DNA of 64,000 nucleotides from an uncultured virus (IMG/VR IMGVR_UViG_3300012665_000858) (Duplodnaviria > Heunggongvirae > Uroviricota > Caudoviricetes). The translations under genes were made by a program, and so were the position numbers. Shown here piece by piece: positions 8,012 to 57,365 of this stretch. The DNA lies in IMG/VR virus record IMGVR_UViG_3300012665_000858, one strand, 5' to 3'. The notes under the pieces were generated by a model, which saw only the letters and a list, made by a program, of their open reading frames with translations, was not told the origin of the DNA and searched no databases. How positions within the stretch are numbered: the stretch's first letter is position 1; each line of letters opens with the position of its first letter.

Positions 8012-8460
8012 TACTCAACCTGTTAGAACGGCTAGATCGCAAACGAGTTATTATGGATCGTCAATGCAACGAGCCGTTGCTAACACGTTATTATCTTTTT
8101 TTAAAAGAACGTAAGAATTTCCCGTTCAATATATTCTTGCATAAGTTTCATAAAGGCGATCCTGGCGATGTACATGATCATCCCTGGCCTTACTTTACAT
8201 TAATACTCAAAGGCGGCTATTACGAATGGGTACCACAGTTCGCCAACGGAGTTATGATTGGCGAGATTCGTAAATGGCGGGGGCCTGGGCATTTTAGATT
8301 TTGTAGTGCCAACAGTTATCATCGTATCGAATTAAAAGAAGGTGTTACACCGTGGACTTTGTTTATGCCTGGTCCACAAAAACAGGAATGGGGATTCCTT
8401 GTTAACAATAAATGGATACATAATGAGTCATACTTACACGATAAGCAACACAGCGGGTAG
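8008..8460 (+). CDS. Cupin-like protein
   Basis: HDHPW...ILKGGYYE and a later YHRI metal-binding His pattern. Confidence 0.6.
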   Translation: MILNLLERLDRKRVIMDRQCNEPLLTRYYLFLKERKNFPFNIFLHKFHKGDPGDVHDHPWPYFTLILKGGYYEWVPQFANGVMIGEIRKWRGPGHFRFCSANSYHRIELKEGVTPWTLFMPGPQKQEWGFLVNNKWIHNESYLHDKQHSG

Positions 8461-8851: not shown

Positions 8852-9098
8852 AAAGAAAGAACTTAAAATTGAATTTGCACCTGGTGCATTTGATCAGTTT
8901 GACGGAACTCAAGAAGAACTAGATTCTCTTATGTCAGAAATTATGAAAATGTTTGAAGGAAAGACTGCCGAAGAAATTCAAGCGTTAAGTACTCCAATGT
9001 CTGACGATGATTTCGATGATCTTCCCAGCGATGTACAAGCACAGATCATGCGAGGATCAGAGGATCTTGCAGACGAATTTAAAAGGAAACTACAATGA
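8844..9098 (+). CDS. Acidic hypothetical protein
   Basis: Start MTEKKELK at 8844 after AAGGTG; coupled to neighbours. Confidence 0.65.
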   Translation: MTEKKELKIEFAPGAFDQFDGTQEELDSLMSEIMKMFEGKTAEEIQALSTPMSDDDFDDLPSDVQAQIMRGSEDLADEFKRKLQ

Positions 9099-55149: not shown

Positions 55150-55369
55150 CGACATAAAAGACGATACACATGATATGCTGGTTAAAGCATTCATAGAGTA
55201 TTCACGCTGGAACGAACGTTTCGAACGTTACGGGTATCACGGTTCCAGTGTACAGGCTCGCGAGTTCCTACGAAACATAAGGGAACTATGCACAAAAAGG
55301 CGCATAGAAATACAGGCACAACGACAATTAAACAAAAAAGCCAGGACGGAAGGCAGTGACGACGAGTAA
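55142..55369 (+). CDS. Hypothetical protein
   Basis: 75-aa helical ORF overlapping the gp46 stop. Confidence 0.6.
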   Translation: MTDDIKDDTHDMLVKAFIEYSRWNERFERYGYHGSSVQAREFLRNIRELCTKRRIEIQAQRQLNKKARTEGSDDE

Positions 55370-55384
55370 CTGGTATATATGTGC

Positions 55385-55819
55385 ATGTCATGGCACTATC
55401 AAAATGTACTTGTCGAAACTCTTCCGGAAGATTGTATAGGTTTTGTTTATATCATCACTAATACACTTACGGGCAGAAAATACATAGGCAAGAAACTAGC
55501 CAAATTCTCTAAAACGACTACAAAAACAGTAAAGCTCAAAAACGGCACCAAGAAGAAAAAGAAGATTCGTAGTAAAATCGACAGCGACTGGCGAGAATAT
55601 TACGGTTCAAGTCCTGCTCTTCAAGCAGACATCGACACACTAGGCATAGAAAACTTCCACAGAGAAATACTTTATTACTGTAAAAGTAAAGCAGAATGTA
55701 GTTACATCGAGGCTAGAGAACAATTCACAAACAAAGTACTAGAATCCGACGACTGGTACAACGGACATATTCAAGTTCGTGTACACGGTTCACATATTAA
55801 AAAACTCTCCCAAGGCTGA
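55385..55819 (+). CDS. Small GIY-YIG (Seg-like) nuclease-fold protein with a highly basic insert
   Basis: GFVYIITN...KYIGKK, YYGSS, FHREIL, YIEAREQ, WYN. Confidence 0.75.
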   Translation: MSWHYQNVLVETLPEDCIGFVYIITNTLTGRKYIGKKLAKFSKTTTKTVKLKNGTKKKKKIRSKIDSDWREYYGSSPALQADIDTLGIENFHREILYYCKSKAECSYIEAREQFTNKVLESDDWYNGHIQVRVHGSHIKKLSQG

Positions 55820-55824
55820 TTAAA

Positions 55825-56161
55825 CGGTTACAGCTCGCGCAGGCCAACTTCATGCGCCCTAAACCTGGATCTCGGATCACAGGGATGGAATTCTCTTGCC
55901 GTTAAGAGTACTCAGCAACTATCCTTAACAGGACGAGGATCACTAACTGCCGTGGTTTTGCTGTTTTAAGAATAAAAGGCCCAAAGAGAGGAGAGACACC
56001 TCACGTAAGCAAGTATGATAGCGTATATTTGTTTGCCGCCGTTGTGATAAGACGGAGCTCGTGGTACCGGACAACCGCCACTGTAATGCTCTAACGCTGT
56101 GTGACATTGTGCAACTCAGATAATGTTTTTAACTTTGCCCTGTGCGGGCGAAGTGTGACTG
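55825..56161 (+). ncRNA. Putative large structured non-coding RNA (family unrecognised)
   Basis: ORF-free; at least 10 hand-identified helices, 5'/3' closing stem, about a dozen G-U pairs that only work on the + strand, candidate pseudoknot. Confidence 0.65.
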
Positions 56162-56181
56162 AACAATCTAGATAATATTTA

Positions 56182-56267
56182 AAGTGCTTCGCACTTAATA
56201 GTTCTTAATAATTAAAAAGAAAGAAATAGTTCGAGCGAAGCGATGAACAGATGAACGCAGTGAATCT
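56182..56267. other. GNA-triloop DNA hairpins flanking an AT-rich tract (candidate origin or ssDNA signal)
   Basis: AAGTGC-TTC-GCACTT (GCGAAGC on -), AT-rich 56197-56228, GTTC-GA-GC-GAA-GC-GA-t-GAAC and AGAT-GA-AC-GCA-GT-GA-ATCT on +. Confidence 0.5.
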
Positions 56268-56274
56268 TGAAGTA

Positions 56275-56505
56275 TTAGAAAAAAGGTAATCCTGATTTCT
56301 TAGTAGTTTCTAAATTCTCTTTGATAATGTTCGATATGATTTCACGATCTTCATAGGATAATGCAAATGCTTCATCTATGGTGATGCTACCTCTCATATA
56401 CCAGCACAATTTAAATAATTCGGTTTTAACAGACTTTGCTTCTTTATCTAGCCCCTCAACTACTCGTAGTGCCTCTTCGAGTGTTAGGCTGAAGAGCTTT
56501 ACACG
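56275..56505 (-). CDS. gp51-like segment, probably translated as a -1 frameshift extension of the gp26-like gene (absent from ORF track)
   Basis: Open -1 frame RVKLFSLTLEEALRVVEGLDKEAKSVKTELFKLCWYMRGSITIDEAFALSYEDREIISNIIKENLETTKKSGLPFF*; only ATG is internal (56397). Confidence 0.7.
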   Translation of the reverse strand, partial: RVKLFSLTLEEALRVVEGLDKEAKSVKTELFKLCWYMRGSITIDEAFALSYEDREIISNIIKENLETTKKSGLPFF

Positions 56506-57365
56506 AAAAAATTCGAAGAGTCCAGTCCTATAGGAGTTTCAAACTCTGCTGGCGCACCTTGAGCTTGTTCTTCTTGGGTCGTTTGAATTTTAAATGATGG
56601 CATTTGGAACTTAATGCGTTGTTTTTCCAAGTGATCGATGATTTTGCTGTAAAACTCTTTGTCAGCATTATCTATAAACTCCTTGATGAACTCTGCATTA
56701 TTAACTTCTCCATCAGGAGTAACAACTTTCACCAAGCCGTTGGCCACGGACCGCATAGTAATTTCAGTTAACGCCTTGAAACTTTTATTAAACTGTGCAA
56801 TTTTTTGTTCTTCTGTGATTTCTTGATTGTTAACAATGCTAAAAATTCGTTGTTCTTCCAAACTTTTTAAAGAACTTTGTGTGAATTCTTCATAGGTTAA
56901 CGGACGTAAGAATGCAGTTAACTCGTCATTAATTTTTACTTCTGGGTCAAATGTTGCTTCTAGTAACTTATCCAGTGCAAATCGTAAATCGGTAGTGTAT
57001 GTTTTTGTCTCAGGTATATTAGGAATAGCAATATCTAACTCTATTTGCTCACCGTATGTTGCTATACGAATAGCAATTAGTATAGCGTCTACATCGATAC
57101 TAGGAATTACCCACGCATTTTTAATATTAGGCATACAACTTTGAATAACATCCACGGTGCTCTGACCATTTAACAATGCGTCAGGAGTTTTAATAGAAAT
57201 TTCATCTCTGGCAGTCATTGCATATACTGGAAACTCCATATTCTGTGTAGGCTCTAATGCACCTGGTGGATAAAAGTTTCCAGAACTAGGCAACCGAACA
57301 TATAGTTTTGGCTGTCTAAAGTACTTCTTTAACGGGTTTTGAGGTACTGCTACTTGATTTTCCAT
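56499..57365 (-). CDS. Baseplate hub assembly protein (T4 gp26-like)
   Basis: NPLKKYFRQPKLY..LPS.G, MTARDE, LLNG, DVDAILIAIRIATYG, RPLTY; ends NFFV. Confidence 0.75.
   Translation of the reverse strand: MENQVAVPQNPLKKYFRQPKLYVRLPSSGNFYPPGALEPTQNMEFPVYAMTARDEISIKTPDALLNGQSTVDVIQSCMPNIKNAWVIPSIDVDAILIAIRIATYGEQIELDIAIPNIPETKTYTTDLRFALDKLLEATFDPEVKINDELTAFLRPLTYEEFTQSSLKSLEEQRIFSIVNNQEITEEQKIAQFNKSFKALTEITMRSVANGLVKVVTPDGEVNNAEFIKEFIDNADKEFYSKIIDHLEKQRIKFQMPSFKIQTTQEEQAQGAPAEFETPIGLDSSNFFV

Follow-up and report, generated by a model that had tools for sequence, protein, structure and literature searches.

A phage copy of the long form of Polynucleobacter-1 RNA carries twin loops that change together

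We identified an RNA about 460 nt long, read from the + strand and containing at least three long-range pairings, in the window, that is, the whole 64,000-nt stretch of DNA from an uncultured virus (IMG/VR IMGVR_UViG_3300012665_000858) that was analyzed here and that forms part of a T4-like phage. Polynucleobacter-1 has been an orphan motif since 2010, and the RNA in the window is a phage copy of its long form. It is modular, consisting of a replaceable 5' domain (the Rfam part), a constant GGUACCGGACAACCGCC core, two tandem units of about 52 nt and two tail hairpins, and the family belongs to mobile DNA, namely T4-like freshwater phages and integrase-bearing bacterial elements. Each tandem unit presents a loop, R1 or R2, and the constraint that ties these loops together is unusual: it is one of identity, not complementarity, and it has been kept through many independent changes.

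The family was identified using Infernal with Rfam 15. RF01718 (Polynucleobacter-1) matched positions 55832-55966 on the + strand (E = 2.3e-24), covering model positions 1-141 of 141, and was the sole above-threshold Rfam match in the whole window; in a permissive search of 55300-56600, the other matches were at chance level only (E ≥0.24). The first-pass annotation, made from the letters alone, had called the RNA unrecognised and had named a strong hit in a cmscan-type comparison as what would remove its novelty. With 115.5 bits against a gathering threshold of 37 bits, most of that novelty is gone. That annotation had been unable to match the RNA to tRNA, tmRNA or RNase P, and no match was found here either, with 0 genes found by ARAGORN in the window and no such Rfam matches. 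A group I or twin-ribozyme intron was rejected, as no Rfam intron family matched up to E 10, the ORF on the 5' side has a stop codon of its own and the gene that follows the RNA lies on the opposite strand. GOLLD and ROOL are large, highly structured orphan RNAs of phages, prophages and mobile DNA, and the RNA described here resembles them; it differs in that neither has an Rfam match in the window and no tRNA lies next to it.

The Polynucleobacter-1 motif comes from Weinberg et al. (2010, Genome Biol 11:R31; PMC2864571), and a full-text literature search found it named in that paper only. The Stockholm alignment in supplement 5 of the paper contains 16 sequences, 11 of which are 274-304 nt long and extend through a linker, a long hairpin with the loop UAGCGU, GCCGUUG, a GGUACCGG..ACCGCC core and ACGCUG; its second structure line marks a pseudoknot between the loop and ACGCUR. 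The window matches this alignment, including the 3' domain (the long hairpin with a UAGCRU loop, the GGUACCGG..ACCGCC core and the ACGCUR pseudoknot), to about position 56101, so approximately 270 of the 337 nt first noted (55825-56161) and the pseudoknot were already described there. The Rfam model holds only the first 141 columns of the published alignment, and this catalogued 141-nt model corresponds to a single exchangeable module within an RNA about 460-600 nt long. Compared with the alignment, the conserved RNA here extends about 170 nt further in the 3' direction, and two of its pairings (leader/loop and UUGU/ACAA, see below) are unmarked in the structure lines. The table rows, alignment and drawing text of that paper make no mention of a phage origin, of nuclease or integrase neighbors, of a swappable 5' domain or of coupled R1 and R2 loops. 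As far as these parts of the paper describe it, the motif shares its habitat with the copies here, namely fresh water and Burkholderiales, and the stretch is present in aquatic and lake metagenome runs.

Upstream of the RNA, the + strand carries, in order, a Metallophos gene (gp47-like), an SMC/AAA_23 gene (gp46-like), a 75-aa ORF and a gene for a 146-aa GIY-YIG nuclease, referred to as c0 (55379-55819), which consists of the domain only and whose stop codon lies 5 nt before the RNA start proposed in the first-pass annotation. The c0 product matched Pfam PF19835 (SegE_GIY-YIG; E = 2.4e-33), and phrog_447 aligned across its full length. On the 3' side, a baseplate-family gene on the - strand is followed by a gp20-like portal gene; the - strand of 56275-57365 holds this baseplate-family gene (PF12322, 288 aa) and then a short ORF. 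The earlier descriptions of the region as the largest non-coding gap and as more GC-rich both held: the gap spans 679 nt (55820-56498) against 330 nt for the runner-up when ORFs of at least 60 aa are counted across the whole window, and the GC content is 48.7% in the noted region against 39.1% in the window. The sequence and the complementary segments listed for it were all found in place. The ORF-free stretches next in size, at 8012-8341 (330 nt) and 8852-9094 (243 nt), gave no Rfam match above threshold. A blastn search with 55700-56300 against GenBank phages returned no match.

Folding energy on its own was not convincing evidence for the fold: the + strand reached -102.4 kcal/mol (z = -1.52), 8 of 100 shuffles were as good, and the - strand had z = +1.45. 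The comparative evidence for RNA structure was decisive. A core-pattern scan of viral contigs yielded at least 120 loci, and nhmmer with the noted 337 nt found 72 of the 120 listed pattern loci to be homologous, 50 of them nearly full length. Across 50 sequences, 85.0% of the cells of the noted structure were paired, compared with 34-44% when the partners were slid, and 57 of its 96 pairs showed changes on both sides, a number reached by 0 of 500 shuffles. The proposal of a functional large + strand phage ncRNA is therefore backed by both homologues and covariation. The strand call stands as well, since the 472 G-U cells far exceed the 121 A-C cells, indicating an RNA read from the + strand.

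Most of the helices listed in the first-pass annotation were supported by covariation in the 50 sequences, all on the + strand. These include the helix 55837-41/55853-57, the hairpins 55864-83 and 55893-908, the junction stem 55913-18/55958-63 with its two inner hairpins, and the helices 56103-27 and 56132-54. The pairing GAGG/CCUC (55988-56002) had 4/4 compensatory pairs, though only 59% paired in this alignment, and the 13-bp hairpin 56005-56036 had 12/13. GAGC/GCUC, GUGG/CCAC and CGG/CCG were supported, the last being invariant. The suggested pseudoknot, 56018-23/56095-100, was 98.3% paired with 6/6 pairs compensatory. Two helices were not supported: CCGUU/GACGG had no compensatory pair, and the stem 55825-31/56155-61, proposed to close the ends of the RNA, was 57% paired with 1 compensatory pair. 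The ends of the RNA are not closed, and conservation extends to about 56268. Mutual information pointed to two alternative pairings, both confirmed by pair counting. UUGU (56042-45) pairs with the loop ACAA (56071-74) in 100% of cells, with 3/4 pairs compensatory (UA 32 / CG 18; GC 38 / AU 9 / GU 3), and the leader segment 55824-28 pairs with the third-hairpin loop 55898-902 in 79.4%, with 3/5 compensatory. In the revised structure, 87.7% of cells were paired, and 63 of its 94 pairs were compensatory. A covariance model with automatic structure contained only 7 pairs and was superseded by a second model.

The conserved block runs from about 55808 to about 56268 on the + strand. It begins with a 5' leader (55808-55831) containing a conserved AGGC, which is kept whatever the upstream gene is, and the segment ACGGU that reaches the third-hairpin loop. 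The 5' domain (55832-55966), which equals the Rfam Polynucleobacter-1 model, comprises three hairpins and the three-way junction. It is followed by a linker with conserved AAAGGC..AAAGA and by the small hairpin and the 13-bp hairpin (together 55967-56036), the loop of the latter entering the pseudoknot, and then by the core (56037-56101), in which the invariant GGUACCGGACAACCGCC lies in nested stems and which ends with the pseudoknot 3' strand. Repeat unit 1 (56101-56152) carries GUGUGAC, a hairpin whose loop holds R1 (CAACUCAGAUAAU, 56112-56124), and a GC-rich hairpin (56132-56154). Repeat unit 2 (56153-56205) carries GUGUGAC, R2 (CAAUCUAGAUAAU, 56164-56176) and a UUCG hairpin (56182-56196) that is terminator-like and missing from many relatives. 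The order 3' of 56161 is GUGACUGAACAAUCUAGAUAAU, the optional UUCG hairpin, an A-rich spacer and the tail hairpins T1 and T2.

T1 (56229-56248) has the stem GUUC/GAAC and the conserved loop GAGCGAAGCGAU, is 90% paired with 4/4 pairs compensatory, and shares the loop motif GAGCGnnAGCGAA between phage and bacterial copies. T2 (56249-56267) is imperfect in this phage; across 59 sequences, its 7 pairs were 98.7% paired and 7/7 compensatory, and the two stems jointly were 96% paired with 11/11 compensatory. T2 is likely the 3' end of the RNA or a terminator, and both tail hairpins may also act as terminators. Because they contain almost no G-U pairs, these stems would fold on either strand. A pairing of GCUUCGC (56186-92) with the T1 loop, possible in this phage, was rejected since the strand is missing from many relatives.

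The exchangeability of the 5' domain was revealed by the loci referred to as type B, of which seven were aligned (L129, L133, L138, L147, L158, L179 and L193). These keep the whole 3' part, but the Rfam domain is replaced by a different conserved domain of about 200 nt, in the approximately 200 nt downstream of the nuclease gene. The type B copies were recovered with a covariance model built on the 3' core; the same model gave weak full-length matches in 2 of 6 nuclease loci earlier taken as RNA-less. Rfam searches of 12 loci for the type B domain found nothing, and this domain may be an undescribed structured RNA module.

We also analyzed the gene neighborhood of the phage copies. The c0 gene lies directly upstream of the RNA in 36 of 45 phage loci and is separated from it by one inserted ORF in 4 more; in 3 of the 45, a PD-(D/E)XK nuclease gene takes its place. 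This phage PD-(D/E)XK endonuclease (PF24608) was seen at the usual GIY-YIG position in L046 (2221-2739), L037 and L025, the last with an RNase H gene (PF00075) between the PD-(D/E)XK gene and the RNA. In several other loci (L007, L048, L052, L009/L042 and L039), the upstream position of the gp46-like gene is taken by radical SAM / SPASM genes, one of which has a B12-binding domain, and the nuclease-RNA pair is still together. Conversely, the RNA is present at 71 of 77 close c0 loci. The GIY-YIG family extends far beyond the RNA: it occurs in 495 GenBank phage records, mostly from cyanophages, and in Melnitz and ACP17 the GIY-YIG gene is present and the RNA absent. The bacterial copies of the RNA are without a GIY-YIG gene, and the phage copies are without a nearby integrase. 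An obligate GIY-YIG/RNA partnership was therefore rejected, given the wider protein family, the lack of co-variation beyond phylogeny and the bacterial copies without the gene. A profile of the GIY-YIG alignment found nothing below E 0.1 among PDB sequences. The genes directly 3' of the RNA vary in both phage and bacterial settings.

The position of the block between recombination genes (gp47-like, gp46-like) and structural genes would suit a transcript that belongs to a replication origin or acts as a primer, or else an element working partly at the DNA level, where early and late genes meet, with the repeats serving polymerase or primer realignment. The A-rich spacer, the tail hairpins that fold alike on either strand and the RNase H gene beside the RNA in one locus are consistent with such a role. 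Identical direct repeats have a role in strand transfer. However, with its strand-specific G-U pairs and its pseudoknots, the main body has features typical of a folded RNA, and the same block is found in integrated bacterial elements with an integrase; we regard an origin or primer as improbable.

To describe the bacterial relatives, we searched 151 genomes sampled from the order to which a Burkholderiales genome belongs and found RF01718 above the cut-off in 3; within the genera and family concerned, it was sporadic (1/4, 1/33 and 2/7). Read by eye, the bacterial copies appear to be full-length relatives. Their layout consists of a leader CUACCG facing a loop CGGUAG, the core AGCGAAACCGCC hairpin, R1, a GC hairpin, R2, T1 and T2, with R1 reading GAACUCxyCGAAAG and R2 reading GAAUCUxyCGAAA. 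Homology of the 3' part is suggested by motifs shared by eye and by weak nhmmer matches (E = 0.009 and 0.07), and the phage-trained covariance model misses this part. A 20-nt stretch of the bacterial core had at least 119 exact matches in metagenome contigs. In 401 genomes, a 19-mer pattern was found exactly in 4, one of which (G176) was a chance match in unrelated DNA. A pattern scan of genome contigs gave at least 121 loci, and those listed were all due to chance (0 nhmmer matches).

The bacterial-type loci, from freshwater Burkholderiales and lake metagenomes, have a characteristic setting. In 52 of 54, the RNA is preceded by a divergent DUF6641 gene; in 52 of 63, it is followed by a same-strand gene for a tyrosine integrase, often about 100-300 nt past T2. 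The protein Atlas gave nothing further on DUF6641, and a full-text literature search found no mention of it. Among the bacterial neighbors examined, PADLOC recognized nothing; for the phage GIY-YIG protein, it gave no more than a weak homing-endonuclease match.

This recurrent same-strand integrase would be expected if the RNA were cis-regulatory, acting through its terminator tails as a long leader of the next gene (the integrase in bacteria) and forming the 3' UTR of the nuclease operon in phages. T2 and the UUCG hairpin are terminator-like, and the table of Weinberg et al. (2010; PMC2864571) marks the motif as probably cis-regulatory. The phage loci fit less well: by hand count, 21 of 44, including this window, are followed first by an ORF on the opposite strand, and where + strand genes follow, they have their own late-promoter-like TATAAATA. 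Moreover, the downstream genes are mutually unrelated, and regulation in cis gives no reason for the identity of R1 and R2. We therefore consider a cis-regulatory role doubtful.

This identity is one of the three most informative properties of the RNA, the others being its carriage by mobile DNA and its position beside enzymes that cut or join DNA. The segment 56101-56205 is a diverged tandem duplication, each unit of which comprises GUGUGAC, a linker, nnA-CUC (nnA-UCU in unit 2) followed by xyAUrAw, a U-rich run and a hairpin. Within R1 and R2 (7-13 nt), the seven bases of the variable box were identical in 90 of 90 distinct phage copies, which fall into ten variants. On a tree built without the R columns, the variants need 19 changes, compared with a minimum of 7, and R1 equaled R2 in 45 of 45 rows; six close sister pairs on this tree differ in their R variant, five of them strongly supported. 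The bacterial-type copies behave likewise. Among the matches listed, which gave 104 distinct copies, R1 and R2 agreed at 10/10 positions in 88 and at 9/10 in 10 more, with box forms AGCG, AUCA, GACA, ACCA, GGUG and others. At the most variable R position among these matches, all four bases occur (GG 22, TT 15, AA 6, CC 6), and the mutual information between R1 and R2 there was 1.63 of 1.79 bits, compared with 0.66 for the next best column. The two loops are direct copies of each other, not complements.

We looked for a partner of the loops in several ways. In the phage loci, no complement to R was found within 1.5 kb, apart from a weak G-U-rich match in 16 of 90 copies, and matches to a possible third copy of R beside the variable genes numbered 8, against approximately 6 expected. 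In the bacterial-type copies listed, no third covarying column was found from -430 to +340. Across the flanks searched, there were neither DNA sites complementary to the R loops nor a third R copy. In the window itself, 25 occurrences of AATCTAGATAAT were counted when up to 2 mismatches were allowed (12.25 expected), a count that 0 of 100 shuffles reach, and its sole exact copy is R2; this excess may be due to base composition. Two specific candidates were rejected. R as a sense codon plus stop, or as a gene-60-like take-off and landing pair, does not hold because the bacterial copies have no stop and the region is non-coding. A type III toxin-antitoxin RNA was rejected as well, since there are just two units, embedded in a large fold, and the downstream ORFs are mutually unrelated.

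Two identical loops could also serve as a scaffold or sponge, in which the R loops and the AGCGA-rich T1 loop bind an RNA-binding protein, either in several copies or as a dimer. The bacterial copies repeat AGCGAA four times (in the core loop, R1, R2 and the T1 loop), and many single-stranded bases are invariant. However, the variable positions use all four bases and switch often among close relatives, a pattern not easily squared with a protein that makes base-specific contacts. Changes of the R box are not mirrored in the T1 loop, and no neighboring protein co-varies: neither c0 nor the small upstream protein has a residue that tracks the R variant beyond the level of an unrelated gene. A protein scaffold is thus an unlikely explanation in our judgment.

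The loops also invite comparison with cleavage sites. RNA-library contigs hold relatives of the region, although such contigs carry no information on strand, ends or expression level, and at least nine short ones end at 56093-56117, just 5' of R1. These ends would be consistent with self-processing, in which a ribozyme or a host RNase cuts alike in R1 and R2 and frees the 52-nt unit between them, as would the complex pseudoknotted fold, the invariant junction bases and the placement of identical sites on either side of a hairpin. On the other hand, no Rfam ribozyme family matched at E up to 10, and a 1229-nt RNA-library contig runs from R1 to R2 without a joint. The contig ends also fall where the most conserved segment stops, a place at which mixed-strain assemblies tend to break. 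There is accordingly only a slim chance that the RNA processes itself in this way.

We tentatively favor a mobile-element RNA whose twin R loops recognize one nucleic-acid sequence twice, a reading that we put forward as possible. Identity, not complementarity, is required when a strand pairs at successive sites or when identical sites are held together, and it is the combination of this requirement with identical, co-changing loops that favors twin recognition. The RNA would act in its own right, not as the leader of one particular gene. R1 and R2 would engage the same sequence, either as two copies of a DNA or RNA site or as one strand passed between the loops. Such twin engagement is what strand exchange or site pairing by the neighboring DNA-cutting or DNA-joining enzymes would need, and the demand for identity would explain why R1 and R2 change jointly. 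Several observations count against twin recognition, namely that no R partner was found, that the GIY-YIG family is wider than the RNA, that neither c0 nor the small upstream protein follows the R variant, that the phage copies have no integrase nearby and the bacterial copies no GIY-YIG gene, that the R1-R2 contig is free of a joint, and that the bacterial 3' part is linked to the phage one by motifs read by eye and weak nhmmer matches.

A more specific version of twin recognition would make the RNA the specificity partner of the mobile-element enzymes, with the two loops holding the two DNA sites, or the exchanged strand, targeted by a tyrosine integrase (in phages, by a small nuclease) and the box corresponding to the crossover core. 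We consider this version a long shot. If true, it would be a bridge-RNA-like principle for tyrosine recombinases and would explain the joint reprogramming of both loops. The IS110 bridge RNA (Nature 2024; PMC11208158), as far as that report describes it, is likewise an ncRNA beside a mobile-element recombinase gene and has two specificity loops. It differs from the RNA here in several respects: its enzyme is the IS110 recombinase, whereas the enzymes here are a tyrosine integrase or small nucleases; the RNA here is about three times larger; and its loops match two different DNAs, whereas the R loops are mutually identical and the searches above found no DNA partner for them. The comparison is offered as a working analogy only. 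If the loops read DNA, the family would represent a new kind of RNA-assisted recombination; if not, it is a well-defined large orphan RNA.

Some further features were observed in individual bacterial-type loci. In L327 (G053:C4:63000-82500), the RNA-integrase module adjoins a Zorya system (ZorC and ZorD, assigned by PADLOC), and two inverted extra copies of the R2 core (10/10 and 13/14 positions) lie inside the Zorya genes, 6-7.5 kb off, probably by chance. In L323-L326 and the metagenome loci, a conserved CTAAATAAC, which may be the -10 element of a promoter, is located about 60-70 nt upstream of the 5' domain; further upstream of it, AGGCAAC resembles the phage leader AGGCAAA.
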